The notes under the pieces were generated by a model. It saw only the letters and a program-made list of their open reading frames with translations, had not been told where the DNA came from and ran no database searches. Source: an uncultured Oscillospiraceae bacterium (GTDB lineage Bacteria; Bacillota; Clostridia; Oscillospirales; Oscillospiraceae). From it: a stretch of DNA of 64,000 nucleotides. Shown piece by piece: positions 40 to 43,732 of the stretch (its first letter is position 1; every line of letters starts with the position of its first letter). Made by a program: the position numbers and the translations under genes. The stretch spans positions 3,167-67,166 of the forward strand of contig CAYJLH010000004.1 in the NCBI GenBank assembly GCA_964370925.1, written 5' to 3'.

Positions 40-300
40 TAATGTATTCGTTAAATGCTGTGAAGAGAAGTAGTATCAAGCTTTTTTGCGTTTCAGAGAG
101 GCGATGTTTGGTGAAAATCGCCCGTAAATACTTGAGAAGTCGTCTCCGAGCTTTGTCGGTGAATTTTATGTAGCCAACAACGTATATTCTGCGTTAAAGA
201 ATTCGAGTGCGGAAATTTTATTTTTCCGAACACAGGTGGTACCACGGTATTTTTTAAAATTATCGCCCTGAGATTTTCTCGGGGCTTTTTTTATTTTTAA
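40..300 (+). promoter_or_regulatory. T-box leader (tRNA-sensing riboswitch) upstream of valS. T-box sequence GGTGGTACCACGG at ~237-249 and an intrinsic terminator (gccctgaga/tctcggggc + U7) at 263-293.
   Basis: Matches the T-box consensus AGGGUGGNACCGCG. Strong stem-loop followed by a T-run lies immediately before the valS RBS. aaRS genes in Firmicutes are typically T-box regulated. Confidence 0.55.
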
Positions 301-15759: not shown

Positions 15760-17292
15760 TTAAAATTGTGCTATAAATCTGTCTAAAATGACTGCCATTT
15801 CAGCGCGAGTTAGTAGTTTATCAGGAGCTAAAAGTCCCTCGTCAGTACCTTTTACTATGCCAGCGGAAACGGCCCACTGCATAGCCTGAACCGACCAATC
15901 AGGCAGGCTTGAGGCATCCGAAAATTCATCAAGAGTTGCCACTTCAAAATCTTCCATTCCCAAATCAATCCCGTAGCGATATAGGAAAGTTACGCATTGC
16001 GCTCTTGTGAGTGAATCATTTGGCAAAAATCTATCCCCGTCGCCCTGTGCAATTTCTGTAAATGCCGCCCATTTCGCAGCTTTTTCATAGTATGAATTTG
16101 CCTCCAAATCGGAGAAGCTCACGCTTCCATCAATGACAGTATTTGGACGAAGTGCTGTTTCAACTCTTGAGAGCGAGGTAATGAACATCGCACGATTTAC
16201 AGTTGAATTCGGTGAAAATTCACCACCACCTGTGCCATTTACAATTTTATCAGCACTGATTTCAGCAACGGCAGAAGCAAACCAATCACTTGCATTGACA
16301 TCACTAAAAGTAGTATTATTAGCGCTTAAATCTAAAGTGTTAACCATATTAGTGAAGCTATCTGCGATATAAAGTTCGTCGTCTACAAGCGCTAATCCAA
16401 CCGGGTTTACAGGCGATAGACCATCTTCAAATCCACCTGTCAAAATCACCGTTTCAGCTCTGCCATCGACAATTTTTCTAACCGCACCATTTCCACTATC
16501 CGAAATGTACAATTCTCCATCATTTGCTATAACTTCTATAGGAGCAGAGAAAAGTGCATTTTTGCCGTTTATAAATCCGTCAATGCCCTCTGTAGAGCCT
16601 GTCAAAGTTGTAACAACTCCATCTTCAATTGCACAAATGCGGTTATTTTCAGTGTCAGCCACATATAAAATTCCATTTTCGTATTCAAGCCCTGTTGGTG
16701 AATTGAAAAGTGCGTCGTCGACGTCTCCATCTGCCCTACCCGCTTCATTTGGTGTTCCTGCAAAGAGTGTAACTTTGCCGTCAGTGTCCATTTTTCTTAT
16801 AACATGGTTGCCACTGTCAGAAATATACACGTTACCCTCTTCATCAACTGCAAGACCTGTCGGGCGGTTGAATTCAACGTCACGGCGTGTTCCATTGCTG
16901 TAACCCTCGTCACTGCCAGCGATTAGTTCAACTGTTCCATTTTCGAGATTTAGCAGTCTAATTCTATGGTTTTCGCTGTCACTAATTGCGTATCCGTCAC
17001 CATATTCCACAATATCCCAAGGAGAGAAAAATCTCGCCTCTTCAACAGTTCCATCTCTATAACTGCCCGAGGGTGTTCCATCAGCATTAGTAGCTCCAAG
17101 CGCACCGGCAATTACTGTAAACTCACCATTTTCAAGTTGCCAAATTTGATGATTATATGTATCTGTAATAATCATACTCCCATCACTGTCAGCTAAAATT
17201 GACGAAGCCGAAATAGGCGTTTCTGCTGCCAAAGTTGTCACACTTCCGACCAAACCTATGGCAAAAGCAGTGGATAAAATTGTCTTTTTCAT
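15760..17292 (-). CDS. secreted NHL-repeat beta-propeller protein with C-terminal SLH domains
   Basis: Signal peptide. Repeated YISDSGNH / YVADTENN NHL motifs. C-terminal SLH-like repeats (DV..W....V). Confidence 0.8.
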   Translation of the reverse strand: MKKTILSTAFAIGLVGSVTTLAAETPISASSILADSDGSMIITDTYNHQIWQLENGEFTVIAGALGATNADGTPSGSYRDGTVEEARFFSPWDIVEYGDGYAISDSENHRIRLLNLENGTVELIAGSDEGYSNGTRRDVEFNRPTGLAVDEEGNVYISDSGNHVIRKMDTDGKVTLFAGTPNEAGRADGDVDDALFNSPTGLEYENGILYVADTENNRICAIEDGVVTTLTGSTEGIDGFINGKNALFSAPIEVIANDGELYISDSGNGAVRKIVDGRAETVILTGGFEDGLSPVNPVGLALVDDELYIADSFTNMVNTLDLSANNTTFSDVNASDWFASAVAEISADKIVNGTGGGEFSPNSTVNRAMFITSLSRVETALRPNTVIDGSVSFSDLEANSYYEKAAKWAAFTEIAQGDGDRFLPNDSLTRAQCVTFLYRYGIDLGMEDFEVATLDEFSDASSLPDWSVQAMQWAVSAGIVKGTDEGLLAPDKLLTRAEMAVILDRFIAQF

Positions 17293-30462: not shown

Positions 30463-32265
30463 TTATTTATATTCGCTAAGTCCCAAACGCTCAAGAGTTG
30501 CCTCTGTTGGGAAAGCAGAATCCCAACCACGTACGTCATAATATTGTGGAAGAGTTACAGGTAGTTCACTAATCATACCCTTAGATGGGCCGTCTGGGAT
30601 AACTTCTTCAAGCAAACGCTTAGGAAGCTTATCGTCCTCGGGTTTCATGCCTGCGTGCTTATTAAATTGGCGCTCAATATTATAAATACGCTCACCAACT
30701 TCAAGCAATTGCTCCGGTGTGTAAGTTGTGCCTGTTGCAGCATTTAAAAGACCTGCATATTGTGGCGCACCCATAGCAAATGATGAGAACAAGCAAAGTC
30801 CCATGCTGTCAATAACAGCAGTTAGGTCTTGGAATATTTTACACCAAGTTGCTTTGCCCTCTGTTGCTGTGCGGTCTAGTTGCTCAGGAAGTCCTAGAAC
30901 CTCTGGGGAAATTAGATATCCACGAACATGGCAACCGCCACGGTTACTTGTTGCATAAGTTATGCCAATTCCTTGAATAGCACGTGGGTCATATGCTGGA
31001 AGCTCTTGCTTCTTAACGCTCATTGAAACTTCTGGATGACCATAATGCTCACAAAGTCTAAAGCTACCGTCAGCCATTAGTTTTGCAAGTGGAATTTTTC
31101 CTTCACCCATGCGCTTTGTCCACTCGATGATAGCTTCTGAACTACCCCAAGCTAGTGGAACACCCTCACATTCCTCTTCCTTGATTGCGCCGATTTGGTA
31201 AAGTTCCATAGCCGCAGCGATAGTACAAGGAGTTGAAATCGCATCGAGTCCGTATTCATTACACCAGTAGTTTGCCTCATTGATAGCAGTAAGGTCACTG
31301 ATATTACAGTTACCGCCGTATGCCCATAGTGGCTCATACTCAGGGCCACCAGTGACTTTTCCGTCGATTTCAATCATACGACCGCAACCCATAGGACAGC
31401 GATGGCAGAAACTTTGCTTTACAAGGTGTTTTTCTCTTAATGTTTCTCCCGATGTCTCGTCAGCCGGTGGGAAATATGCTTCTTGCCAGTTACGAGTTGG
31501 GAAAGCTCCTGTGTTATTGATAATGTTAACCAGAACAGCTGTACCATAAGTTGGTAGACCCTGACCGGTAACACCGTTTTCACGAATTAGTTTCATGCTC
31601 TCAGCTGTTACCGCTTTCAAAGCGTCAGCATCAGCTGGTTTAATAACTGTACGTGATGCACTTACTGTGATAGCCTTAAAATTCTTGCTACCCATAACCG
31701 CACCAACACCACTACGACCTGCCGCACGGTGCTTATCATTCATGATACATGCAAGCAGTGATAGATTTTCACCTGATGGGCCAATGTTCAAAACTGCACA
31801 CTTTGGATAAATTTCTTTCAATTTATCGTCAATGTGTTCGCTCATCATGCCCATATAGGGACTTGCGTCCAAAAGTTCAATCTTATCGTCCTCAATGTTG
31901 AGGTAAACAGGTTTTTCTGATTTTCCCTCGACAATAATTCCGTCATAACCTGCATATTTAAGTTTTGCACCCCAAACACCACCTGAGTTTGATGACGCAA
32001 TCATGCCTGTTAGCGGTGATTTTGTCACAACCATGTATCTACCGGCTGTTGGTGAAGCTGTTCCTGTCATTGGACCTGCTAGGAACACCAATTTGTTTTG
32101 TGGGCTTAGTGGTTCAACAGTTGCGACACCCTCATCCATCAAAATTTTTGTACCCAATCCACGACCGCCAATAAACTTTATAGCATCGTCTAAGTTTAGG
32201 TCTTCAACTTTGATAGCGCCCTCTGTTAGGTTAACACGAATAATTTTTCCGCAATATGATGTTGA
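30463..32265 (-). CDS. aor: aldehyde:ferredoxin oxidoreductase (tungstopterin enzyme family)
   Basis: AOR N and C domains. Start moved to ATG 32265 (MSTSYCGKIIRVNL) with RBS GAGGAGG. Confidence 0.9.
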   Translation of the reverse strand, partial: STSYCGKIIRVNLTEGAIKVEDLNLDDAIKFIGGRGLGTKILMDEGVATVEPLSPQNKLVFLAGPMTGTASPTAGRYMVVTKSPLTGMIASSNSGGVWGAKLKYAGYDGIIVEGKSEKPVYLNIEDDKIELLDASPYMGMMSEHIDDKLKEIYPKCAVLNIGPSGENLSLLACIMNDKHRAAGRSGVGAVMGSKNFKAITVSASRTVIKPADADALKAVTAESMKLIRENGVTGQGLPTYGTAVLVNIINNTGAFPTRNWQEAYFPPADETSGETLREKHLVKQSFCHRCPMGCGRMIEIDGKVTGGPEYEPLWAYGGNCNISDLTAINEANYWCNEYGLDAISTPCTIAAAMELYQIGAIKEEECEGVPLAWGSSEAIIEWTKRMGEGKIPLAKLMADGSFRLCEHYGHPEVSMSVKKQELPAYDPRAIQGIGITYATSNRGGCHVRGYLISPEVLGLPEQLDRTATEGKATWCKIFQDLTAVIDSMGLCLFSSFAMGAPQYAGLLNAATGTTYTPEQLLEVGERIYNIERQFNKHAGMKPEDDKLPKRLLEEVIPDGPSKGMISELPVTLPQYYDVRGWDSAFPTEATLERLGLSEYK

Positions 32266-32325
32266 CATAAAAAAATCCTCCTCATTTTTGAATAATATTT
32301 CGATTTTACGTAAAAATAAGCACGC

Positions 32326-32415
32326 AAAACCAAAATCCTTTCCAAATACGGGAGGCATCACAATTACGGCGGATACCCTTAGGCTTATTTCCATATCAAA
32401 TAAGCTCGGATTTAT
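32326..32415 (-). promoter_or_regulatory. candidate molybdenum/tungsten-cofactor (Moco) riboswitch in the aor 5' leader
   Basis: Minus-strand transcript carries blocks AAAUCCGAGC, the hairpin gcuuauuu-gauaugg-aaauaagc, then UAUCCGCCG, GCCUCCCG and GGAAAGGAUUU. A P1 AAAUCC/GGAUUU closes the element. The blocks resemble my recollection of the Moco RNA motif (CCGAGC, CCGCC, CCUCC, GGAAAGG). Preceded by the promoter at 32422-32450. Confidence 0.4.
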
Positions 32416-32421
32416 AGTACT

Positions 32422-32450
32422 ATATTACCATAATTCAAATCGACTGTCAA
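32422..32450 (-). promoter_or_regulatory. candidate sigma-A promoter for aor (TTGACA, 17-nt spacer, TAATAT)
   Basis: Minus-strand hexamers at 32445-32450 and 32422-32427. Confidence 0.4.
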
Positions 32451-32496: not shown

Positions 32497-33411
32497 TTAA
32501 CCTCCCATGGTCATATGATTTACCAAAAATCTCCTGTAAAATTCCTCTCTAATCTGAAAACTACCAATCATTTTAAGTTCCGACCTCGTAATAGGGATAT
32601 TAAACCTATTATCTGCGCCAATTTCTGTCACGCTAAGTCTTATATCTTTGAAAGCAAACAAGTCCTCCGCCAGCGAATAAACACCGTCCATTTCATCGAA
32701 AAATGAAAAAAGTTGCGCCCTTGAATATGCTAGATTTTTGACTTCAAGTTCCTCTTTCGTATCGCTGTTCCAAAAAAGTTCTTCTTTGACCTCAGCATAA
32801 AAAGCAGTAGCCCTTTCTAGCATATCTTCCTCAGTTCGTCTGCGTTTGCACATTTCAGAAATTTCAAGTTTGTACATTTCTTCGATACGTTTTCCGCAAA
32901 TTCCACGCATAGTAAAAGTGCGAATTAGCAAAGCACATGTCCGCTTTTTCCAGTCTGTAAAACTTGGATTATATGTGGCGGCAAATGCAATGATTTTTCC
33001 GCAATCTTCTGCGATATCGCCCTCCGAAATGTGGCTTTCGAAGTCAATTCCGACACAAATTTCGTCTTTTTCACTGAAAATATAGTTGCGTAAATTGTTA
33101 TCAACACGCAGTTTACCAGTCGCTTTGTGGTATTCTAGTAACCACTCCGCGAGTGCTATTGCGTGTTTTTCCTCCATATTTTCCACTAATTCGGAGTATA
33201 AAATTCCGTCGATATGCTTGTAACAGAGCATGTTTTCTGATGTCGAAACCAAGCTTGGAACTGCAACTTTTTTTGACTGTAAAAGGGCAATCATAGCCTT
33301 TTCACGTTCAAAATCCTCTGTATTTTTGAAAAGTTTTTTTACAATTTCCCCATCACCCCTTACAGTATTTCTTTTGGAAATAAAGGTGATTTCAGTGGAA
33401 TTTTCTTGCAT
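32497..33411 (-). CDS. hypothetical protein with protein-kinase/APH-like fold (small-molecule kinase candidate)
   Basis: 304 aa. VDNNLRNYIF...VGIDFE resembles the HxDxxxxN...IDxE catalytic and Mg-binding motifs of aminoglycoside/choline-kinase-fold enzymes. Last gene of the ECF operon. Confidence 0.45.
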   Translation of the reverse strand: MQENSTEITFISKRNTVRGDGEIVKKLFKNTEDFEREKAMIALLQSKKVAVPSLVSTSENMLCYKHIDGILYSELVENMEEKHAIALAEWLLEYHKATGKLRVDNNLRNYIFSEKDEICVGIDFESHISEGDIAEDCGKIIAFAATYNPSFTDWKKRTCALLIRTFTMRGICGKRIEEMYKLEISEMCKRRRTEEDMLERATAFYAEVKEELFWNSDTKEELEVKNLAYSRAQLFSFFDEMDGVYSLAEDLFAFKDIRLSVTEIGADNRFNIPITRSELKMIGSFQIREEFYRRFLVNHMTMGG

Positions 33412-34175
33412 TATTTCAAGCCTCCACGCTTAAAGCTAATCTCAATATCTCCGTCCTCAGTATAGCCGTTTAGCTCTTTAACTACAGACAAAACAGCATT
33501 TTTTAAGAGATTTTCGACAAACGGAACCATTTCAATGTTATGACCATCGACCTTTAGCTCAATACTTGGCTTTTTCAGTACGCAATCCTCGGCTGTCGCC
33601 TGTTTTTTCAAGATTTTACCTGTCAATTCCCTACATGTACAGCCACACGCATCACAACATTTCGGATCCATATTCGGCATAGGTGAAATCGCATGTTGCA
33701 TGACAAATTGAACGAGTTTTTCAGGCTCGTCAAGAGCATGAATTACGGGATAATCACCAAAACTTTTTCTCCCATCATTTGCCAAAACACCCGAAACTCC
33801 GACCACTCTTTCGTCAAGTCTCTCCAAAACTTCTTGCTCAGTGTGAGCCGTCAAAATTCTGGGGACATTGAGGTCCGTAACTCCCTCTAAAATCACATAA
33901 TCATGGTCATAGTGTCGCAAAATATCCTCAATCGGTAGCATGGTTTGGTACAGAACATCTGTCTCAAACATTCCTCTCGCTGTGACTAATTGCGAGCCTG
34001 CATTTTTATGACGGTTAGTATTTGAGTCCTCCACAGGGTCAATTTTAAAAAGTTCGAAGTGTATTTCTTTAACCGAGCCGACAGAAAACCCAAGCTTTCT
34101 AAGTCCGCTGATAATCGTCTCGCACACAGTTGTTTTTCCAGACTTTGTAATGCCATTAACTGCAATAACTTTCAT
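33411..34175 (-). CDS. MobB-like P-loop NTPase with C-terminal Cys-rich domain
   Basis: N-terminal GITKSGKTTV Walker A and the overall pattern of MobB (molybdopterin-guanine dinucleotide biosynthesis protein B). C-terminus has CCDACGCTC. Confidence 0.55.
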   Translation of the reverse strand: MKVIAVNGITKSGKTTVCETIISGLRKLGFSVGSVKEIHFELFKIDPVEDSNTNRHKNAGSQLVTARGMFETDVLYQTMLPIEDILRHYDHDYVILEGVTDLNVPRILTAHTEQEVLERLDERVVGVSGVLANDGRKSFGDYPVIHALDEPEKLVQFVMQHAISPMPNMDPKCCDACGCTCRELTGKILKKQATAEDCVLKKPSIELKVDGHNIEMVPFVENLLKNAVLSVVKELNGYTEDGDIEISFKRGGLK

Positions 34176-34187
34176 AATTTTTCCTCC

Positions 34188-34916
34188 CTATCCATAGTAA
34201 AAAATCATAGTCGTAGCCGAAATTGCGAGCAATAAAACTATGGCGACAACATCAATTCCAACCATTTTTACTTCTATAAAACTCGTGCGTTTTTTCATTG
34301 CACCAAAACCTCTAGCCTCCATTGCCATTGCCAAATCCTGTGATTTTATAACAGCGTCGGCAACAACAGGCGAGAGTAAATATCCGTATAATTTTATCCT
34401 TTTTCCGAAGGGAATTTTTTCAACTTCAATCCCTCTAAGTTGAATTGAAACCATTGCATCTGTAAAACTTTCCATAAAAAATGGAATAAATCTTAGCGTC
34501 AACATAATCATAAATGAAAAAGTATAAGGCACATGCAATTTTGAAAGCGAGGCTATAACCCGCCTGCTGTTTTCACTTTCCATGATTGCCGCTGAGGAAA
34601 TCAATGTAAAAAATCGAAGTCCCATGGTCACACCACGCAAAAATCCGTCGGTGTAAATAATTACGAATTCCCCGTATGAAAGCAGTGGTTCACCCGACCT
34701 TACAAATATAATTTGAATCACGCAAACTCCGATTAATATGTTTATAAAGCGTTTTAATTTGTTAAAAAGGAATTTGTAATTCGCCCCAAAAAGTAGCATT
34801 AACACAAAGGAAAACACGGCAATTCCGAGCAAATACAGCCAATCTTTGAACAAAATCGACATTGATGTCGTTAACAAAATCCCAAGCAGTTTTACCCGTG
34901 GGTCAGCATTTTTCAT
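34188..34916 (-). CDS. ecfT: ECF transporter transmembrane T component (CbiQ/EcfT)
   Basis: 242 aa, 5-6 TM, conserved ARG signature (MEARGF). Confidence 0.85.
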   Translation of the reverse strand: MKNADPRVKLLGILLTTSMSILFKDWLYLLGIAVFSFVLMLLFGANYKFLFNKLKRFINILIGVCVIQIIFVRSGEPLLSYGEFVIIYTDGFLRGVTMGLRFFTLISSAAIMESENSRRVIASLSKLHVPYTFSFMIMLTLRFIPFFMESFTDAMVSIQLRGIEVEKIPFGKRIKLYGYLLSPVVADAVIKSQDLAMAMEARGFGAMKKRTSFIEVKMVGIDVVAIVLLLAISATTMIFYYG

Positions 34917-35574
34917 TTACAATTCCTCCTTTCGACACTTTGACAATGCGTGCCTCAGGAAAGCGAGAAAAAAGCTCCGTATCATGGGAAATCACAGCAA
35001 TTCCAAGTCCTGATTTCACAAGCTCATCCATAATCGTGTATAAGGTTTTGCGGTTTGCCACATCTAAGCCTGTTGTAGGCTCGTCAAGCATGAGATATTT
35101 GATGTCTTGCATAAGAATTGAGGCAAGCGCAAGCCTTTGTTTTTCGCCACGACTGAGACGATATGTGCTTCGTTTTGCCAGATGTTTTAGTGAAAATCTG
35201 TCCAAAAGTTCTATGGCTTTTTTTGCGATTTCATCGGGGTTTTGGTCTAAAACCGAACCTATAAATGTCATCTCATCCCAGACTGTTGCCGTAAAAATCT
35301 GCTTTGACGGCTCTTGAAAAAGGTAGCCTACATATTTTCCCATTTGCCCAAGAGTGAAGTTTGTTGCGTCATTTCCAAAAACCGTATGCCCCATGCCCTC
35401 ACATTTTAAAATCCCTGCACAGAGCTTCAAAAGAGTTGATTTTCCGCTTCCGTTATTCCCCTCAACAAGACAAATTTCGCCTGTTTTCAAGGTGAATTCT
35501 TCGGCAGTAAATCTAAAAGCGTTTCTTGGATACTGAAAGGAAATATTTTTAAGTGTGATTGCATGTTCACTCAT
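34903..35574 (-). CDS. ecfA: ECF transporter ATPase component
   Basis: ABC ATPase with Walker A (GNNGSGKST), signature (LSRGEKQR) and Walker B. Confidence 0.85.
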   Translation of the reverse strand: MSEHAITLKNISFQYPRNAFRFTAEEFTLKTGEICLVEGNNGSGKSTLLKLCAGILKCEGMGHTVFGNDATNFTLGQMGKYVGYLFQEPSKQIFTATVWDEMTFIGSVLDQNPDEIAKKAIELLDRFSLKHLAKRSTYRLSRGEKQRLALASILMQDIKYLMLDEPTTGLDVANRKTLYTIMDELVKSGLGIAVISHDTELFSRFPEARIVKVSKGGIVNEKC

Positions 35575-36263
35575 AAACTCTCTCCTCCGCTCCCCTTTTG
35601 TGCCACAAGTTTTCCATCAATAAATGCATAAATTTTATCAGCAATAAACAGATTTTCCTCGTCGTGTTCGACCATCAAAATTGCTTTCCCACGCTTTTTC
35701 AGCTCGACTATACAATCCATAATCCTTGCTGTTGCCTCCCTGTCGAGCTGGCTTAAAGCCTCGTCGAACAATAGCACCTGTGGGTCTAGCGTTAAAACTG
35801 CCCCCAAGGCAACAAGCTGTTTTTGGCCACCCGAAAGACGTGTAGGACTGTGAAATCTATAGTCCTCCATGCCGACAATTTTTAGAGCTTCATCAATTCT
35901 TTTTGCGATTTCTTCCCTCGGTAAACCTATGTTTTCAGGACCAAAAGCGAGTTCATCCTCAACCGTAGGTGCAAAAAGTTGTGCATCAGGATTTTGGAAA
36001 ACTATGCCGACTTGTCGCACAACTTCATGCAACGGCATTTCGGCTACAGCCTTACCCGAAAGTAGTGCTTCGCCCTTTAATTCGCCCTCTATACTCCTCG
36101 GAATTAGCCCCGCTAATATCAGACAAAGTGTTGATTTTCCGCAACCTGATGGCCCTGTAATCGCAACACATTCACCCGAATTTATAGATAGATTTGCACC
36201 GCTTATAAGTGGATTTTGCCCTAGGTAGGAGAAGAAAATCTCCCTTGCTTCAAGCTGTATCAT
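35571..36263 (-). CDS. ECF transporter ATPase component (second)
   Basis: ABC ATPase (GPSGCGKST, LSGGQKQ). Start set to ATG 36263 with ATGA coupling. Confidence 0.85.
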   Translation of the reverse strand: MIQLEAREIFFSYLGQNPLISGANLSINSGECVAITGPSGCGKSTLCLILAGLIPRSIEGELKGEALLSGKAVAEMPLHEVVRQVGIVFQNPDAQLFAPTVEDELAFGPENIGLPREEIAKRIDEALKIVGMEDYRFHSPTRLSGGQKQLVALGAVLTLDPQVLLFDEALSQLDREATARIMDCIVELKKRGKAILMVEHDEENLFIADKIYAFIDGKLVAQKGSGGESL

Positions 36264-36793
36264 TGTATCACAACTTCCTGTACAAATTTGCACCAACGCT
36301 GTGAAAATTCTGAGCTTTTTATAATCATTAGGTATGGCCCCATGCCACCCTCTGATTTTGGTTTTAACGGTTCATCATCCATCGCAAGGCAGATATAAAC
36401 ATTATCCTCCGTCATGATTTCCTCTTTTGTCAGCGCTGAGGTATAACCGTCAAGTGAGCGCACTTCTATAGTTTCACTCGAAATTTCCATATCCGCAAAT
36501 TCGAAAACATCCTTTAATTCAACGCCCGAAAAACTAACATCAGTCGGGTCTGTATTGCTCGTATCCATAACCGCAGAAACGGGTACAGGGTTAAGTGACA
36601 ACATGTCATCCATAGTGATTTGAACCGTTGTTTCACCTGATTTTAGCTCAAAAACCGCATTCATTTCAAGCTCTTTTTTGTAGCTGACATCGCCGGCATT
36701 TAGCCTTGAAAAAATTGTAATCATAATAACAAGCACTGCAATGATTACAAGCAATATTTTTGCCTGATTATTAACATTTTTCTTGTATTCCAT
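36260..36793 (-). CDS. membrane-anchored extracytoplasmic protein with one sulfite-oxidase-family-like (Oxidored_molyb-like) module
   Basis: N-terminal TM anchor. C-terminal ICLAMDDEPLKPKSEGGMGPYLMIIKSSEFSQRWCKFVQEVVI resembles the LAYEMNGEPLP..HG.PLR.VVPG..G...VKWL..I tail of MsrP/YedY/SUOX Moco domains. Confidence 0.45.
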   Translation of the reverse strand: MEYKKNVNNQAKILLVIIAVLVIMITIFSRLNAGDVSYKKELEMNAVFELKSGETTVQITMDDMLSLNPVPVSAVMDTSNTDPTDVSFSGVELKDVFEFADMEISSETIEVRSLDGYTSALTKEEIMTEDNVYICLAMDDEPLKPKSEGGMGPYLMIIKSSEFSQRWCKFVQEVVIQ

Positions 36794-36805
36794 AGTTTTA
36801 CCCCT

Positions 36806-38287
36806 CTATTTTATCGTGAAAAATGGAATACACATATCTTCGTACTTAAACTCGCCGTGGTCTCCCAATTTTTCACCAATACTTGTGTCATGTTGTCCGT
36901 GGTCAGAAATTATATAAGTAGTCCCCGAAAAAGCGGAAAGCATTTCGTTGACATAGCCCTCGATTTCATCGAGTTTTTTTATTGCTTCGTCTGAATACGT
37001 CCCATAAGTGTGGGAAATATCGTCATAGCCGTGGAAGTGTACAAAGACTAATTCGTGTTCCTCTTCTATCGTTTTCATGGCAGAAGCAAAAACTTCATCG
37101 TCAGTCGAGCCGTCAGCATTTTCATCTGCGTTTAAAATCGGCGAAACACTTGAATTCACAAGTTTTGAATATCCCTCAACCAAAACACCATCGACATTTT
37201 CAAACATGTCAGGCACTAAAAGTTCACGCTCTGAGCGCTCAGTTACGCCGTTTATGTCCGGTGTTTCCCCAGTTATCATCGCCGCAAGTGCCACATTTGA
37301 TATACTGGGCATAACTGTACGCATTTTTTCCACTGTATGCTCTTTCGAAAGTTCTAAGCCGTGCATTTCGTATGCTTTATAGCCCAGCCCGTCGATATGA
37401 ATTACCAAAACATCTCCCTCAGTGTTTTCAACTATGCCTTTCAGGTCTGTTATAGATGCCTCGGGTGCATCTTCCCAAACTCCAACTATGTCATGAATTC
37501 GGGTTTTTCCGTCGGCATCAACGTAGTCGGCAGTGTTTCCTCTCCAGTCGAAATAACCGTCAAGAGATACCATTTGCTCTGACCCATCACCGAAATAAGC
37601 AAGCGCTTCCCCACCATTTGAGTCAATATAGCTCGAAATCGGAACCATAGGTCGGCGAGTATAGGCGCTAACACCAAGTCCGTTTTTTTCTGCATTTCCC
37701 TCGACGACAGACATTATAACACTATCTTCAAGGAACAAATTTCCGTACGAAATTTCATAACCGCTCTCACCCGAAATTGTGCGCAAACACGCCTGTTCAG
37801 GGTGCATAATTTCTGCAACTAGTACAATATAGTCGATGTTTCTGATGCCTGCCTGTGGCGGAAAATTGGGAGCACTTATGGAAAATCCCGCAGTTTCATT
37901 CCAATAAAGCAAAATACTTTCATCAATATCATCTTTTGAGATTTCAGCCATAACACCATCCGGTGAATGAAAAATCACTTTAATTTCACTACCCAAAGGA
38001 ACAGCTTCATTTAGCACATTTATAAGCGGTATTGCCGGAAAATTTTCTCCATCTTTTTCAACTGTTGTGGTTTCATAATCCGAAAAGTCCGTCAGCGTAA
38101 TTTCGGTTTCGACATCGCCTGTTATGGTAATAGGGCTTCGCTCTCCCGACAAAAATGAGATTTCAGTCGGTGCAACTTCTTCTGTTTGTGGTGATATCTG
38201 AGGTGAGTTACTCGCCTGTTCCTGACATCCCGAGAATATAAAAAGCGTCGCAAGCGATAGAACTGTTAAGCTAATTTTCTTTTTCAC
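36806..38287 (-). CDS. lipoprotein: N-terminal SUOX-like module fused to an alkaline-phosphatase-superfamily (nucleotide pyrophosphatase/phosphodiesterase-like) domain
   Basis: Start set to GTG 38287 (RBS GGAGGA, then MKKKISLTVLSLATLFIFSGC lipobox). C-terminal DHG.HD metal-ligand motif (ISDHGQHD) typical of the AlkP/NPP core. Confidence 0.55.
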   Translation of the reverse strand: MKKKISLTVLSLATLFIFSGCQEQASNSPQISPQTEEVAPTEISFLSGERSPITITGDVETEITLTDFSDYETTTVEKDGENFPAIPLINVLNEAVPLGSEIKVIFHSPDGVMAEISKDDIDESILLYWNETAGFSISAPNFPPQAGIRNIDYIVLVAEIMHPEQACLRTISGESGYEISYGNLFLEDSVIMSVVEGNAEKNGLGVSAYTRRPMVPISSYIDSNGGEALAYFGDGSEQMVSLDGYFDWRGNTADYVDADGKTRIHDIVGVWEDAPEASITDLKGIVENTEGDVLVIHIDGLGYKAYEMHGLELSKEHTVEKMRTVMPSISNVALAAMITGETPDINGVTERSERELLVPDMFENVDGVLVEGYSKLVNSSVSPILNADENADGSTDDEVFASAMKTIEEEHELVFVHFHGYDDISHTYGTYSDEAIKKLDEIEGYVNEMLSAFSGTTYIISDHGQHDTSIGEKLGDHGEFKYEDMCIPFFTIK

Positions 38288-38918
38288 TGGTTTCCTCCAA
38301 CTCTTTGGGCATAGGTACTGAAAAACCATTGCCTTTTTGTTTTTCATCTTTTGTGATTTGTCTGCCTTGCAAAATCCCGAGGCGTCTTACGTTAGAGCCG
38401 ATTGAATGTGCAACCAAACCACCCAAACCGCCAGATAGTGCAGATGCAGTTAGTGATAGCATCAATGGAACAAAAGATAGGTTGAAAATCGCAAGATTCA
38501 CCGAAAAGCTACCTGCCATGTTGGCAACAACTCCGCCAAGAAAACAGCAAATCGCACAATCTGCCCTGTGCCTCATAATCAAATATAAAAGGTCAATTGC
38601 AATTCCGGGCATGGTGTAAGTTAGAATACTCGCCGCACCATGAGAGCCAAGCGCGCCTGTTAGTGTAACAACCGCACCTTGTATCAAAGCAACGACAAAA
38701 GCCGTTCCCCATTTTCCTGTAATGCTCTCCCCCAACACAAGGAAAGCCATATAAAAACCGCCTGCAACCACACCGCCGGGTATAAAAAGTGGCCCTGTGA
38801 TGATTTGTGCAAGCGGAACAATAATCGCCTTAATTGCTATGCCCATAGCAGCAACCATGGACATAATGCAGTAATCTGCCAGTGTGAAATATGGTCTTTT
38901 TATTTTCAAGAGTAACAC
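38271..38918 (-). CDS. ECF transporter substrate-specific S component (unassigned family)
   Basis: 215 aa, 6 TM, small hydrophobic core typical of ECF S components. Encoded with ecfAA'T. Confidence 0.65.
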   Translation of the reverse strand: MLLLKIKRPYFTLADYCIMSMVAAMGIAIKAIIVPLAQIITGPLFIPGGVVAGGFYMAFLVLGESITGKWGTAFVVALIQGAVVTLTGALGSHGAASILTYTMPGIAIDLLYLIMRHRADCAICCFLGGVVANMAGSFSVNLAIFNLSFVPLMLSLTASALSGGLGGLVAHSIGSNVRRLGILQGRQITKDEKQKGNGFSVPMPKELEETSEKEN

Positions 38919-38994
38919 TCCTTTTCACTATTAGGGCAGATGCATCTGCACCTACCCTAATAAAATAACTCGTCATCTTGTAGTATTACAAGAA

Positions 38995-40575
38995 TTAATC
39001 AATAACAATTTGAACTAGATATTTCGCCCAGTTATTTGCTGTGAAGTTTTCGCTGACTGCAAACCAAACTTTGCCGTCGCCATCGCTTTCGATATATTCG
39101 CCATCTTGATATAGTGCAAACATTGATTGTGGGTCGTTTAGCATGTCGGGTGTTAGTTTGATTTCATATCCGTCAGAAGCGATAACTGTTATTGTGCTTT
39201 CTGGGTCAGCACCAACAAAGTTTGCAATTTCTGACCAGTGAACACCTTTGTAAACACCGACAACTGTTTCACCAAAAGAGTTTGTGCGTGAGATTTCATG
39301 CTCTAGTTGTGGTAGTGCCATAAAATCTTCTTCTGTGATAGCTTTTGCTTCGCCACCAACTGTGATAGTTAAAAGTGCGCCTTCAACAGCTTCTGTTTCA
39401 ACTTCTTCGCCTGCTTCTTCTGACACTGTTTCACCTGAAACCAATTCGCCTGATGGAACAATTGAAGCTAGGTATTTGACTTTTCCGCCGCCTTTAGCAT
39501 CGCCAAAGTCATAACCTTCGAATTCAGCTCTGATATAGCCCTCTTCTTCGTCTGGATAGATTTTTCCGAATTCAATAGCGTCACCAGGAATAACTGTCTC
39601 ATATCCGTCGCTTGCGATGAATTTATACTCGCTGTAACCGTTAATTCCCAGTGTATCAAGTAGTGTTGCAACATCTGTTTCTGTTCCGAAATAAATAGCT
39701 GTTGAACCAGCTTTAACTAGGTCAAGTTGCTTAACACGCATGCCTAGGTTTAGTGTTTCTGAGAAATATTGTGGTGCATTTGTTTCCATATCTTCGCTAC
39801 CCTCAAGTTTTGAAACATAGCAAGTGAAGAATACATCAGCATTTTCTGTTTTTTCGTGTCCATCACGAGCAATTAAAGTAAATACTTCTGTTTCATTTTC
39901 AGGAAGGAATGCATCAAAATATGCTTGAAGTGAGTATGATTCAACCATTGTTCCGTCATAGTCTAAAGTTTCAGGTGTTAAAGTTGTCGCATTTTCAAAG
40001 AAAAATTGAACTTCTGCAACCATTTCTTCGCTTGCAGCCGCAGCTTCACCTGCACCAATTTCAATCATTGATAAATCTTTAACCCAGAACATAGCGCGTT
40101 TTTCAGGAACTGCACTTCTAGGTGTTTCAAGGACTTCACCGTTAAATGTAAGAACGATGTAAGCGCCTGTTTCTGCATATTCGTCGGCTGGTACGTTCAT
40201 AACATAACCGTCAGCCGCTGTGAAAGTCAAGCCACCGACATCTGCCAAGTTGATTCCATTTTCTTCAAGAACTTTTGCAATTGAAATGCCCTCAAAAACG
40301 ATTTCTGAGCTTTCGCCTTTTGAGTCTAGTGATGTTGTTTCAATTGTTTCAAGCTCCATAGCTTTCATGTCTGCACCGGTAAGTACGATGTCAACACCCT
40401 CACCTTTGATTGCAATTTCATAATCGTCAGCAAGTCCGCCCTCAGTTGATGCCTCGGGGCTAACTTCAGCACTTGCCACGGGGCTTTCTTCCGGAGCATC
40501 TGTTTCACTTGAACATCCGGCAAACACCAGCATAAGCAAAACAAGCGCAAGGGATAATAGTGTATGCTTTTTCAT
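38995..40575 (-). CDS. lipoprotein with three tandem SUOX-like (Oxidored_molyb-like) modules
   Basis: Lipobox LVFAGC. Three ~150-aa repeats, each carrying ..DGY...P......(Y/F)..(N/D)GE.......G....W.(K).L..I(V/E)I (e.g. FNGEVLETPRSAVPEKRAMFWVKDLSMIEI and DGDGKVWFAVSENFTANNWAKYLVQIVID). Confidence 0.55.
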   Translation of the reverse strand: MKKHTLLSLALVLLMLVFAGCSSETDAPEESPVASAEVSPEASTEGGLADDYEIAIKGEGVDIVLTGADMKAMELETIETTSLDSKGESSEIVFEGISIAKVLEENGINLADVGGLTFTAADGYVMNVPADEYAETGAYIVLTFNGEVLETPRSAVPEKRAMFWVKDLSMIEIGAGEAAAASEEMVAEVQFFFENATTLTPETLDYDGTMVESYSLQAYFDAFLPENETEVFTLIARDGHEKTENADVFFTCYVSKLEGSEDMETNAPQYFSETLNLGMRVKQLDLVKAGSTAIYFGTETDVATLLDTLGINGYSEYKFIASDGYETVIPGDAIEFGKIYPDEEEGYIRAEFEGYDFGDAKGGGKVKYLASIVPSGELVSGETVSEEAGEEVETEAVEGALLTITVGGEAKAITEEDFMALPQLEHEISRTNSFGETVVGVYKGVHWSEIANFVGADPESTITVIASDGYEIKLTPDMLNDPQSMFALYQDGEYIESDGDGKVWFAVSENFTANNWAKYLVQIVID

Positions 40576-40624: not shown

Positions 40625-40654
40625 ATTTTAACATATTTTCTTGATAAATGTCAA
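40625..40654 (-). promoter_or_regulatory. candidate sigma-A promoter of the ECF/lipoprotein operon (TTGACA, 18-nt spacer, TAAAAT)
   Basis: Minus-strand hexamers at 40649-40654 and 40625-40630. Short (~45 nt) leader to RBS AAGGAG. Confidence 0.4.
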
Positions 40655-40702: not shown

Positions 40703-41359
40703 TCAAAGCAGTATTTCAAACTCATTTTTTGAAAATTTTATTATGCCCTCTTTCTGCATTTTCGATAGTTCATTTGAAAGCGCACTTCTATCCGCACATA
40801 GAAAACTCGCGAGTTGTTCACGATTTAACTCTATAGTAAACTTTTTAGCGCCTCTCCTTGAATAGTTGAAATATGCCATAATCTTTTCCCTCAGAGTTTT
40901 CTTAGAAATAATATCAATTTTTTGGTTTAGATACAGACTTTTTCTGGCTATAACCTTTAGCATATTGGAAATTAGTGTCTGATGAAACCTACATGATGAA
41001 CTACATGTCGTAACAATTTTCCTATAGTCTAAAAACAAAACCCGACTTTTCGCCCCTGCGACTATCGAAACAGGGCTTTGAAAAATATCCGCACACGCGA
41101 AAACCTCCAAAAAGATATCCCCGTCAGATATCTCGGCAATTATTGTTTCATTTCCGTTTTCATCAGACTTCATAACTCTAACTTCACCCGAAATTACTAT
41201 TCCTACAAAATCTATTTTGTCACCTAAGTGTAAAATATACTCATTTTTGGCGTAGCTCTTTTCAAATGCGGATATGCAATTAAACATAGCATTAAAATCT
41301 TCTCTTGTGATATTATCGAATATAGGATGTGCACATACTAAATCAAAATAATTTTTCAT
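40703..41359 (-). CDS. Crp/Fnr-family transcriptional regulator (HcpR-like)
   Basis: cNMP-binding domain plus C-terminal HTH. Divergent from ferredoxin-hcp. Start at ATG 41359 (MKNYFDL). Confidence 0.8.
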   Translation of the reverse strand: MKNYFDLVCAHPIFDNITREDFNAMFNCISAFEKSYAKNEYILHLGDKIDFVGIVISGEVRVMKSDENGNETIIAEISDGDIFLEVFACADIFQSPVSIVAGAKSRVLFLDYRKIVTTCSSSCRFHQTLISNMLKVIARKSLYLNQKIDIISKKTLREKIMAYFNYSRRGAKKFTIELNREQLASFLCADRSALSNELSKMQKEGIIKFSKNEFEILL

Positions 41360-41382
41360 AATACCCCTTTTTCGTTGTGTAG

Positions 41383-41398
41383 ACAACAGATTTGTTGT
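41383..41398. promoter_or_regulatory. candidate operator: perfect inverted repeat ACAACA-N4-TGTTGT in the hcpR / ferredoxin-hcp divergent region
   Basis: Seen directly at 41383-41398 between the divergent starts. Confidence 0.3.
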
Positions 41399-41445
41399 GT
41401 TGATTATAATACAATGTGGATACAGAAGTCAAGGAGGCTTAACAA

Positions 41446-42117
41446 ATGAGCAAAAAAGTTATAAAGATAGATGCCGACAAATGCATAGGCTGTGGTCTAT
41501 GTGCAGCGACATGTAAGCAAAGTGCAATCGAAATGATTGACGGAAAAGCAGTTGTAACATCAGAAGATTATTGCGACGGAATTGGAAATTGTCTTCGCGT
41601 ATGCCCTGTAAACGCAATTAGTTTTTCAGATAAAGATGTAAGCAAATCAGAGGACAGACCCAAACATTCAACTTGCCCCGGTAGCAGAGCAAAAATGATT
41701 TCATCTGACGAAAATGTTGCAGATGTAAAAATAAAATCCGCCCTACGTCAATGGCCAGTGCAAATTAAATTAATTCCCGAAAGTGCGCCTTATTTTGAAA
41801 ATGCAGACTTGCTTATCGCCGCAGATTGCTCCGCATTTGCATATGCAAATTTTCATGCGGAATTTATCAAAGATAAGATTACTATAATCGGATGTCCAAA
41901 ACTCGATAGTGTTGACTACACGAATAAATTAAGTTCAATCATCAATAATAACAGTATCAAGTCAGTTACAGTCGTGAGAATGGAAGTTCCATGCTGTGGT
42001 GGTATCGAAAACGCCGCAGTTAACGCAGTGAAAAACAGTGGAAAAAAATTACCGCTTAATGTAGTTACTATTACAATTAACGGTGAAATTTTAAAAAATA
42101 AGAAAGTTGAGGATTAG
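41446..42117 (+). CDS. 4Fe-4S ferredoxin-domain protein
   Basis: CIGCGLCAATC and CxxCxxCP-like cluster motifs. Confidence 0.8.
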   Translation: MSKKVIKIDADKCIGCGLCAATCKQSAIEMIDGKAVVTSEDYCDGIGNCLRVCPVNAISFSDKDVSKSEDRPKHSTCPGSRAKMISSDENVADVKIKSALRQWPVQIKLIPESAPYFENADLLIAADCSAFAYANFHAEFIKDKITIIGCPKLDSVDYTNKLSSIINNNSIKSVTVVRMEVPCCGGIENAAVNAVKNSGKKLPLNVVTITINGEILKNKKVED

Positions 42118-42121
42118 TCAA

Positions 42122-43732
42122 ATGAGTGAAATGTTCTGTTTCCAATGTCAGCAGACCGCACACAACGTCGCTTGCGAAGGCAAGAGCGGTGTTTGCGGAA
42201 AAAAATCCAACAATGCACAGCTTCAAGACGAATTGACAAGTGCATTAATCGGGCTTGCACGTTGCCTAGACGGTGATACAAAACCCACAGAGGACACAGC
42301 AAGAATTGTAATCGAGGGGCTTTTTACCACCATTACGAACGTAAACTTCAACGATGACACAGTGCAGAAAATGATTGAGCTTGTCCACAATGAAAAGTCT
42401 GTAATCGTTCCCGGTTGTGCCGGATGCACCTCTGCATGTAACAGAAACGATGATTATCACATGGACTATCTTTGGAAAGAACACGAAGATATTCGCTCGC
42501 TGAAATCATTGATTTTGTTCGGTATTCGTGGTATGTCCGCTTATGCACATCATGCGATGGTTTTAGGCTACGAAAGCGAAGAAATCAACCAATTTTTGTA
42601 CAAGGCGCTGTTTTATATCGGCTCTGATTGTGGCGCGAATGAACTTCTTCCAATCGTACTTGAAGTCGGAAAAGTGAACTTACAGTGCATGGAACTTCTG
42701 GACAAAGCCAACACCGAAAGTTACGGCACACCAGTGCCCACAAGCGTTTCACTAACTATTGAAAAAGGCCCATTTATCGTCATCAGCGGACATGATTTGC
42801 ACGATCTTAAACTTCTTTTAGAACAAACAAAAGACAAGGGCATAAACATCTATACACACAGCGAAATGCTACCAGCTCACGCCTATCCAAAACTCAAAGA
42901 GTACAAGCATTTAAAAGGAAATTTCGGCACTGCGTGGCAAAGTCAGCAGAGCGAATTCCACAACATTCCCGCACCGATTTTGTTCACCACTAACTGCCTA
43001 ATGCCAGTTCGTGAGAGCTATAAAGACAGAGTTTTCACAACGTCTGTTGTGTCATATCCAGAGCTTGTGCACATTGGAAACGACAAAGATTTTTCGGCTG
43101 TAATCGCAAAGGCCTTAGAGTGTGGCGGTTACGACGAGGACAAGCAAATGACAGGCATCAACGGCGGTAAAACTGTCATGACAGGCTTTGGTCACGGTAC
43201 TGTTTTATCTGTTGCAGATAAGGTCATTGACGCCGTTAAGGGTGGAAAAATCAAACACTTTTTCCTAGTCGGCGGTTGTGATGGCGCTCAATCTGGCAGA
43301 AACTATTACACTGAGTTTGTAAAACAAAGCCCTAAGGACAGCATTATTTTAACTCTCGCTTGTGGTAAATATCGTTTCAATGATTTAGACCTTGGAGATA
43401 TAGAGGGCTTGCCTCGTATCATGGACATGGGACAATGTAACGACGCTTATAGTGCAATTAAAGTTGCCGTTGCTTTGTCTGAGGCTTTTGGATGCACAGT
43501 CAATGAATTACCTCTATCCATGGTGCTTTCTTGGTACGAACAAAAAGCGGTTGCAATACTTCTAACACTTCTTTACCTCGGAATTAAAGACATCTATTTA
43601 GGGCCAACTCTACCAGCTTTTGTGTCAAAAAATGTGCTTGATATTTTGGTCAAAAACTATAATATTTCGCCAATTAGCACTCCTGAAGAGGACTTAAAAA
43701 AAATTCTTGGTGAAGTTGCTGTCGCAAACTAA
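42122..43732 (+). CDS. hcp: hybrid-cluster protein / hydroxylamine reductase
   Basis: Canonical MFCFQCQQTA N-terminal cysteine motif. Start set to ATG 42122 (RBS GAGGA). Confidence 0.9.
   Translation: MSEMFCFQCQQTAHNVACEGKSGVCGKKSNNAQLQDELTSALIGLARCLDGDTKPTEDTARIVIEGLFTTITNVNFNDDTVQKMIELVHNEKSVIVPGCAGCTSACNRNDDYHMDYLWKEHEDIRSLKSLILFGIRGMSAYAHHAMVLGYESEEINQFLYKALFYIGSDCGANELLPIVLEVGKVNLQCMELLDKANTESYGTPVPTSVSLTIEKGPFIVISGHDLHDLKLLLEQTKDKGINIYTHSEMLPAHAYPKLKEYKHLKGNFGTAWQSQQSEFHNIPAPILFTTNCLMPVRESYKDRVFTTSVVSYPELVHIGNDKDFSAVIAKALECGGYDEDKQMTGINGGKTVMTGFGHGTVLSVADKVIDAVKGGKIKHFFLVGGCDGAQSGRNYYTEFVKQSPKDSIILTLACGKYRFNDLDLGDIEGLPRIMDMGQCNDAYSAIKVAVALSEAFGCTVNELPLSMVLSWYEQKAVAILLTLLYLGIKDIYLGPTLPAFVSKNVLDILVKNYNISPISTPEEDLKKILGEVAVAN

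Follow-up and report, generated by a model that had tools for sequence, protein, structure and literature searches.

The closest described relatives of the proteins considered here are the PruR proteins, which have been described only in Proteobacteria, as signalling partners of DcpA (PMC11194511, PMC13259868). PruR has a truncated sulfite oxidase (SUOX) fold in which the molybdenum (Mo)-ligating cysteine is replaced by W70, and a pterin is sandwiched by Y104 and W160 and hydrogen-bonded by N102 (PMC11194511). How pterins are transported across membranes is unknown, according to a 2026 review (PMC13259868). A comparison of riboswitch regulons includes systems that take up B12, thiamin, riboflavin, queuosine and folate and none that takes up the molybdenum cofactor (Moco) (PMC3766115), and uptake of the cofactor has been shown only in C. 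elegans, where no transporter has been identified (PMC7849362, PMC9793310). Here we analyse a nine-gene operon on the minus strand of a 64,000-nucleotide (nt) stretch of DNA from an uncultured Oscillospiraceae bacterium (this whole stretch is called the window below), in which three exported proteins with PruR-like modules are encoded together with an energy-coupling factor (ECF) transporter. We have high confidence in the identity of the modules and in the link of the operon to the metabolism of the Mo/tungsten (W) cofactor. We put at about even the chance that the operon scavenges Mo/W pyranopterin cofactor material (molybdopterin, Moco or the tungsten cofactor (Tuco), dinucleotide forms, or a precursor) from anoxic surroundings.

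A module shared by three exported proteins

An earlier reading of the window from its letters alone (the original prediction) had proposed that three exported proteins share one repeated module, and this was confirmed by profile comparisons with hhalign and by matches to the Pfam family PF00174. All three proteins, like the rest of the operon, are encoded on the minus strand. C526 is a lipoprotein of 526 aa (38995..40575; lipobox LVFAGC), B is a lipoprotein of 493 aa (36806..38287; lipobox IFSGC) in which a module is joined to a beta domain and a nucleotide pyrophosphatase/phosphodiesterase (NPP)-type domain, and a is a protein of 177 aa (36260..36793) with an N-terminal membrane anchor and a single module (aa 45-177, 36263-36661). 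Each of the three thus carries an export signal. Translation of B begins at a GTG codon, 7 nt downstream of a ribosome-binding site (GGAGG), within a longest open reading frame (ORF) that reaches 38347. Pairwise BLAST among the three proteins was only weakly significant (E values from 9e-6 to 6e-3, identities of 23-28%), and we therefore gathered homologues, split the proteins into domains on AlphaFold models and compared the domain profiles with hhalign. A census with hidden Markov models (HMMs) counted six domains of the module type in the window, of which a and B have one each and C526 has four.

Although the lipoprotein had originally been described as a triple array, the AlphaFold2 model and the HMM envelopes of C526 resolve four related domains, of which two are full modules, one is a half-module and one is divergent. 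D1 (aa 48-178, 40042..40434), assigned by hhalign and its HMM envelope, is a full module with the motifs DGY and W-V-K. D2 (aa 184-296, 39688..40026) is the divergent module (DGH...MRVKQLD), assigned by hhalign and by the same strand and helix order in the model, and D3 (aa 297-380, 39436..39687) is a C-terminal half-module (SDGY...P...KVKYL) assigned by hhalign and secondary structure. D4 (aa 397-526, 38998..39387) is again a full module and was assigned by hhalign against C', a separate gene family of ~165 aa that is found in many genomes. D1, D4, the a family and C' are interrelated at hhalign probabilities of 97.5-100% (D1 versus D4, 97.5%, E 6e-12; D1 versus the a family, 98.6%, E 5e-16; D4 versus the a family, 98.2%, E 6e-14; D4 versus C', 100%, E 3e-47). 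The N-terminal module of B (aa 48-163 of 493, 37799..38146), which has the invariant D-G, reached 88-95% to C', the a family, D4 and D2, and D3 reached 89-94.5% to D1, D4 and C', whereas D2 was marginal (75-88% to D4 and to the B module). Because D4 matches the C' family and because there are short C homologues (~360 aa) without D4, C526 is best described as the fused product of two genes that occur separately in other genomes.

The fold of the module is that of the SUOX family. PF00174 matched a (30.3 bits) and C526 (32.4 bits) above its gathering score (cutoff 24), with partial coverage that comprised the distal two thirds of the model (HMM positions ~59-163 of 169); B had no PF00174 match, so that its module was recognised by hhalign alone. 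Foldseek supports the SUOX fold and places the modules closest to PruR, a non-enzymatic pterin binder, and in the predicted models the modules have the three-dimensional fold of a Moco domain. The best matches of the a family among sequences in the Protein Data Bank (PDB) were also PruR entries (7kom and 7kos, E 9e-4 and 2e-3). In this alignment D115-G-Y117 of a corresponds to N102-D103-Y104 of PruR, with the Y kept and the N replaced by D. The a family has Thr where PruR has W70 and SUOX enzymes have Cys, and the P-W motif of PruR is thus replaced.

At the level of single residues, D115 is invariant in the a family, G116 and Y117 are near-invariant, a GGxGP motif is present and W167-C168-K169 is 90% conserved. 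The last strand has a conserved Trp (W-x-K), which is aligned with that of WVKHL in SorA; no residue was mapped to W160 of PruR. Across all module types, the motifs named in the original prediction are kept in part: every type has the D-G, and in most the last strand keeps a Lys or a Trp (W.K), but most types retain only part of each motif, and in the B module and C' only D-G is conserved. Judged from their sequences, the DGY and W.K motifs would fall on the parts of the SUOX/PruR fold that face the ligand. A conserved Cys at the canonical Mo-ligand position is absent from the alignments of every module family, and a catalytic Mo enzyme was rejected for this reason. Homologues of D1 and D4 do have covarying Cys pairs (columns with 72-84% Cys), which are probably disulfides given this covariation and both of which C526 has lost (T/A and I/A). 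The semi-conserved Cys of D1 homologues (FxCxN) was considered as a Mo ligand and rejected, as it covaries with a second Cys and is absent in C526. As far as sequence comparison and models go, the ~130-aa module is a truncated SUOX-fold (PF00174) domain of the PruR type, that is, a pterin-binding-fold domain without the Mo-ligating cysteine, and it is probably non-catalytic. The earlier suggestion that the repeated modules would bind rather than catalyse fits both this missing cysteine and the closeness to PruR.

A distant protein from a JGI metagenome (P0031, 324 aa, annotated as 'YedYZ catalytic subunit') consists only of tandem SUOX-like modules of ~140 aa, so multiplied truncated SUOX domains also occur outside this type of operon.

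The original prediction had also described an AlkP-family phosphodiesterase fused to one module, and this too was borne out. The C-terminal 215 residues of B match PF01663 (46.3 bits, cutoff 23) and PF01676, and the catalytic NPP/AlkP core (aa 277-493, 36809..37459) finds the NPP of Xanthomonas (Xac NPP, 2gsn) in a profile search of the PDB at E 2e-8. In the AlphaFold2 model of B (pLDDT, the model's own confidence score, 91.6), the nearest structures by Foldseek are Xac NPP and ENPP1/3 at the top, followed by others including PorX and phosphonoacetate hydrolase. The core aligns with Xac NPP over DG(l)G with its metal-site Asp, PSIS(N), DDxxH and DHGxH, all invariant in 54 homologues; we take these to be the Xac NPP sites D54, T90, D210/H214 and D257/H258. 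The nucleophile is Ser (PSISN) in B and Thr in NPP. NPP enzymes are also known to cleave flavin adenine dinucleotide (FAD) and nicotinamide adenine dinucleotide (NAD). Between module and core lies a confidently modelled beta-rich domain (37460..37798) with no detectable kinship to the module (hhalign below 17% to every module profile). The motifs of the core make B a plausible active ecto-pyrophosphatase. The idea that processing may be coupled to capture agrees with an NPP domain that keeps its nucleophile and all metal-ligand motifs.

The operon, its regulation and its spread

In the operon the gene for C526 is followed by those for an ECF S-component-like integral membrane protein (S; 215 aa, 38271..38918; PF09819, E 1e-10), B, a, the ATPases EcfA (A; 35571..36296; PF00005, E 3e-25) and EcfA' (A'; 34903..35574; PF00005, E 5e-25), the transmembrane component EcfT (T; 34188..34916; PF02361 CbiQ, E 2e-27), a MobB-like P-loop protein with a Cys-rich, iron-sulfur (FeS) C-terminal region (MobB-FeS; 33411..34175; PF03205, E 4e-12) and a small protein-kinase-like protein of the Bud32/RIO/APH type (Kin; 304 aa, 32497..33411). 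The set expected of a group I ECF transporter, with two ABC ATPases, T and S in one operon, is thus complete. The MobB-like protein also matched the NCBIfam model PRK14494 (MobB/FeS) at E 1e-37, which is under that model's cutoff. The kinase-like protein matches Bud32, Rio2 and APH in profile searches of the PDB, and K26, E37, D104, N109 and D123, which are all of the catalytic residues, are invariant in its family. The profile of the S component had no match among PDB sequences even at E 10, so that it could not be linked to YkoE or to any other S component of solved structure, and in an NCBIfam search no model matched the S, C, B or a proteins. A promoter-like site (TTGACA-18-TAAAAT) lies upstream of the operon at 40625..40654 (minus strand).

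Downstream, the operon is followed by a gene for an aldehyde:ferredoxin oxidoreductase (AOR; 30463..32267, minus strand; PF02730 and PF01314, full length), a member of a tungstopterin enzyme family. Between the two lies a Moco/Tuco riboswitch aptamer (32319..32437, minus strand), which scored 45.8 bits with RF01055 against a gathering score of 36, and 79 bits with R1, a covariance model that we built from the Rfam RF01055 hits at the clusters described below. This riboswitch has its own promoter-like site at 32450-32422, and the true start of the AOR gene is an ATG at 32267 that has a ribosome-binding site and follows the riboswitch.

We scanned for relatives of B in one genome per species and found them in 301 species genomes, including those of cultured species such as Clostridium ultunense, Anaerovirgula multivorans and Dethiosulfatibacter aminovorans. 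The carriers are mostly Clostridia (Christensenellaceae, Oscillospiraceae, Tissierellales and Halanaerobiales), with a few in Coriobacteriia, Actinomycetota and Sumerlaeota. For comparisons of gene order and leader sequences 80 loci were fetched, across which the genes keep a strikingly constant order, C-[C']-S-B-a-A-A'-T-MobB-Kin, and the three exported module proteins are inside the operon in nearly all of them. Counted over 84 loci, S is present in 76, T in 71, MobB in 71 and Kin in 57.

The riboswitch recurs with the operon. At the Rfam gathering score, eight loci have RF01055 immediately 5' of the cluster's first gene, and an R1 aptamer is directly upstream of the first cluster gene in 51 of the 80 loci; the E-values of R1 are rough, and the eight matches in cluster leaders are independently over the curated Rfam threshold. 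Other R1 matches precede genes for AOR or formate dehydrogenase (FDH). In the alignments of cluster aptamers that we examined the P3 stem is missing, as is characteristic of the Tuco type; Regulski et al. associated the P3-less aptamer with tungsten-cofactor metabolism (PMC2408646). Genes that use or make the cofactor also recur nearby: AOR genes in seven sampled loci in addition to the window, NAD-linked selenocysteine FDH in six to eight loci, other bis-molybdopterin guanine dinucleotide (MGD) oxidoreductases in about three, and MoeA in three, where its gene comes directly after that for MobB or Kin. A scan for signature motifs of MoaA and MoaC found none in 1.4 Mb of sequence, which covers the loci and not whole genomes.

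Several single loci differ in ways that touch on these genes. In L012 a second, stand-alone module protein of 163 aa (15845-16519, minus strand) has its own Moco/Tuco riboswitch and is convergent to the main cluster. In L025 (17645-20320), and likewise in L019, L029 and L043, the catalytic subunit of an FDH encoded downstream of the cluster is split into ORFs of 348 and 538 aa that are 12 nt apart, most likely an in-frame UGA selenocysteine codon and not a real break. In an Actinomycetota metagenome-assembled genome (L066, 5824-8111) a fusion of the folate-branch pterin enzymes FolB and HPPK and a MoeA gene follow the cluster.

The commonest additional gene encodes a small FMN_bind protein with a membrane anchor; it makes up 26 of the 150 flanking ORFs and is present in 36 of the 80 loci. 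These proteins carry the flavinylation motif (S/T)GA(T)(L/I)TS, their gene is often the first after the riboswitch, and FMN_bind is fused to C in L050, L052, L083, L062, L081 and L057-type loci. Such partners suggest that in many lineages the ligand undergoes redox chemistry outside the cytoplasm. Four loci of the Clostridium ultunense group (L057, L058, L067 and L078) encode proteins of ~1,300 and ~525 aa that match module and FMN_bind profiles, an additional module protein of 160 aa and a short NPP protein (~355 aa) without the N-terminal module.

Three loci have a FecCD/Peripla_BP_2-type importer between C and S (L033, 677-4365; L038, 5705-9393; L042, 5161-8848); the permease ORF of L033 was confirmed with Pfam, and a cobalamin adenosyltransferase-like gene is among the flanking ORFs of these loci. 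Tuco riboswitches also control 'Fe ABC-type' transporters in Eubacterium limosum (PMC11725836), for which reason this transporter class may carry something cofactor-related rather than iron. These three loci brought to mind a corrinoid (B12) as substrate of the operon, but the type of riboswitch, the presence of MobB and MoeA and the pterin fold make this unlikely.

Other observations concern the surroundings. In L011 the cluster has group II intron domains (RF02001, RF01998; 13198-13468) immediately downstream. In the window the operon adjoins a divergent gene for a Crp/Fnr-family regulator (40703-41386, annotated on the minus strand), beyond which there are a 4Fe-4S ferredoxin-like ORF (41446-42117) and an ORF of 541 aa (42107-43732) that resembles a hybrid-cluster protein by eye; 40703-43732 has the appearance of an HcpR-hcp unit next to the operon, of which unit the regulator was scanned with Pfam. 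At the far end of the window a T-box leader (RF00230, 143.9 bits; 51-273, plus strand) lies upstream of an ORF of 873 aa (320-2941), presumably for an aminoacyl-tRNA synthetase.

Proposed cofactor salvage and its alternatives

Characterised ECF transporters are importers of vitamins or vitamin precursors, and the usual pattern of vitamin salvage is to dephosphorylate outside the cell and re-phosphorylate inside. The salvage that we infer follows this logic and that of riboswitch control by the end product. In the scheme we propose, C would capture the pterin on several sites and B would cut a pyrophosphate or phosphoester, for example converting MGD or molybdopterin cytosine dinucleotide (MCD) into molybdopterin and a nucleoside monophosphate. 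The anchored module a would then hand the product to the S component, and the ECF module would take it into the cell, where the kinase-like protein and MobB-FeS might re-process it and pass it on to MoeA/MobA and various enzymes, the tungsten AOR next door among them. In most relatives the riboswitch would, if it acts like the Moco riboswitches characterised so far, switch the operon off when the cofactor is plentiful.

Several points weigh against this scheme. Free Moco is very labile, and the Bud32 and RIO proteins, to which the kinase-like protein is closest, are often ATPases and not small-molecule kinases. The redox chemistry implied by FMN_bind is not required by salvage. The operon of the window itself has no RF01055 or R1 match upstream of C526 (40576-40702), and a Moco riboswitch alone does not identify a substrate, since such riboswitches also precede cofactor-using enzymes and metal transporters. 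Ligand, activity and direction of transport are all inferred, and the models do not decide whether the pocket would fit a pyranopterin; the pocket of PruR has been described as too short for Moco (PMC11194511).

Alternatively, the flow might be outward. The ECF transporter, fed by MobB-FeS, would then export Mo/W cofactor to SUOX-like proteins secreted through Sec, which with flavinylated FMN_bind partners would form an extracytoplasmic redox enzyme like MsrP/YedY in bacteria that lack an export route for folded proteins. The frequency of FMN_bind, its fusions to C and its place after the riboswitch would all be explained in this way, the a family has a lone Cys that is 90% conserved (W-C-K), and a Listeria ECF system has been proposed to supply flavin outside the cytosol (PMC9973259). 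Nevertheless, a cysteine is missing from the canonical Mo-ligand position in every module family, several of the modules have degenerated or make up only half a domain, and the cluster lacks both a membrane electron-transfer protein and ApbE. The window has no FMN_bind gene, nor do about half of the loci. Outward assembly also leaves the NPP hydrolase and the kinase-like protein without an obvious role and runs counter to the nearly uniform import by characterised ECF systems, and we consider it improbable.

We consider it similarly improbable that the operon imports tungstate, molybdate or a metal complex, as TupABC and ModABC do, with the SUOX-like modules as binders of the oxyanion or complex. 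Moco/Tuco riboswitches classically precede mod and tup transporters (PMC2408646; PMC11725836), and the cluster adjoins W/Mo enzymes and MoeA, which both speak in favour of metal uptake. The known ligands of the fold, however, are pterins, and in most module types nothing is better conserved than the pterin-contact D/N-x-Y (the B module and C' keep only D-G). An oxyanion would moreover not need the kinase-like protein or the intact nucleotide pyrophosphatase, and we know of no ECF S component for oxyanions.

Slightly less credible still is uptake of a pteridine other than Moco, such as a neopterin or monapterin-type compound, a folate-branch pterin phosphate or a flavin, with a Mo/W link that is regulatory only. 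The non-Moco pterins and short pocket of PruR would suit such a substrate, as would the FolB-HPPK fusion beside the cluster in L066 and the activity of NPP enzymes on FAD and NAD. It is harder to reconcile with the Tuco-type riboswitch upstream in 51 of 80 loci, with MobB-FeS in 71 of 84 and with the recurring adjacency of MoeA, AOR and FDH, and Rfam reported no folate or flavin mononucleotide (FMN) riboswitch in the window and the 14 loci scanned.

Finally, that there is no real repeat and that the motifs are products of low-complexity composition or chance, as the low raw identities and modest E-values (23-28%; 9e-6 to 6e-3) might allow, can be dismissed with near certainty, since profile-profile probabilities reach 97-100%, Pfam matches exceed the gathering score, a common fold is confidently predicted and D4 is split off or fused as a gene of its own in other genomes.

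Comparison with known systems

If cofactor salvage is correct, cells in anoxic communities would exchange Moco/Tuco material, and some of the carriers may be cofactor auxotrophs. The operon is a concrete and widespread genetic handle with which salvage and cross-feeding could be tested among anaerobes that depend on W/Mo enzymes (AOR, formate dehydrogenase), and it bears on the question of how pterins and the Mo/W cofactor pass membranes. We searched the literature and found no description of this operon, and no ECF or other bacterial importer for a Mo/W pterin; surveys of flavinylation do not mention the cluster. It is conceivable, with a chance that we would put a little below even, that this is the first dedicated bacterial uptake system for the Mo/W pyranopterin cofactor or a pterin precursor, in which an ECF transporter is combined with multi-site binders at the surface and an ecto-pyrophosphatase. 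The class of substrate is potentially new and the architecture is unusual; ECF transporters, the PruR-fold domain and the Moco/Tuco regulon are known kinds.

The modules resemble PruR of A. tumefaciens, Vibrio and Klebsiella (PDB 7kou, 7kp2 and 7rkb; PMC11194511) in being secreted, truncated SUOX folds of ~130 aa without the Mo-ligating cysteine and in conserving the N/D-x-Y pterin-contact motif. PruR, however, has one domain and acts in proteobacterial signalling as the partner of the GGDEF-EAL regulator DcpA, whereas the modules occur in an ECF operon of Clostridia, in six copies that are lipid- or membrane-anchored and of which one is fused to an NPP enzyme. No DcpA-type GGDEF/EAL protein or sensor partner was found near the cluster in the 80 loci, where the neighbours are ECF components, MobB and the kinase-like gene. 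The newly defined pterin-binding fold of PruR is thus extended from signalling in Proteobacteria to transport in Gram-positive bacteria. From the SUOX molybdoenzymes (sulfite oxidase, SorA and YedY/MsrP) the modules differ in lacking the Mo-ligand cysteine and any dimerisation or heme domain, and in being exported by the Sec/lipoprotein route and not as a folded holo-enzyme.

Like the group I ECF vitamin transporters (YkoEDC, CbrTUV and BioMNY), the operon has a small S component (PF09819) with its own EcfA, EcfA' and EcfT, and orthologous operons have a riboswitch that senses an end-product cofactor. ECF transporters normally do without extracytoplasmic binding proteins, whereas this operon has three, together with an ecto-hydrolase, MobB-FeS and a kinase-like protein, and would represent an ECF transporter with extracytoplasmic capture proteins. 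B shares the catalytic core and the bimetal and nucleophile motifs of Xac NPP and ENPP1/3, but it is a lipoprotein with a minimal core of ~215 aa and a Ser nucleophile, and this core comes after a pterin-type module and a beta domain.

The ECF operon is not among the members of the Moco/Tuco regulon (RF01055; moa, mod/tup and Mo/W enzymes) in the regulon and tungsten literature (PMC3766115, PMC2408646, PMC11725836), which names no Moco uptake system either. In Eubacterium limosum the P3-less aptamer lies directly upstream of tupABC and WOR1 (PMC11725836). The orthologous operons have the same P3-less aptamer directly upstream, and the Moco/Tuco riboswitch regulon thereby gains a major member that had not been annotated.

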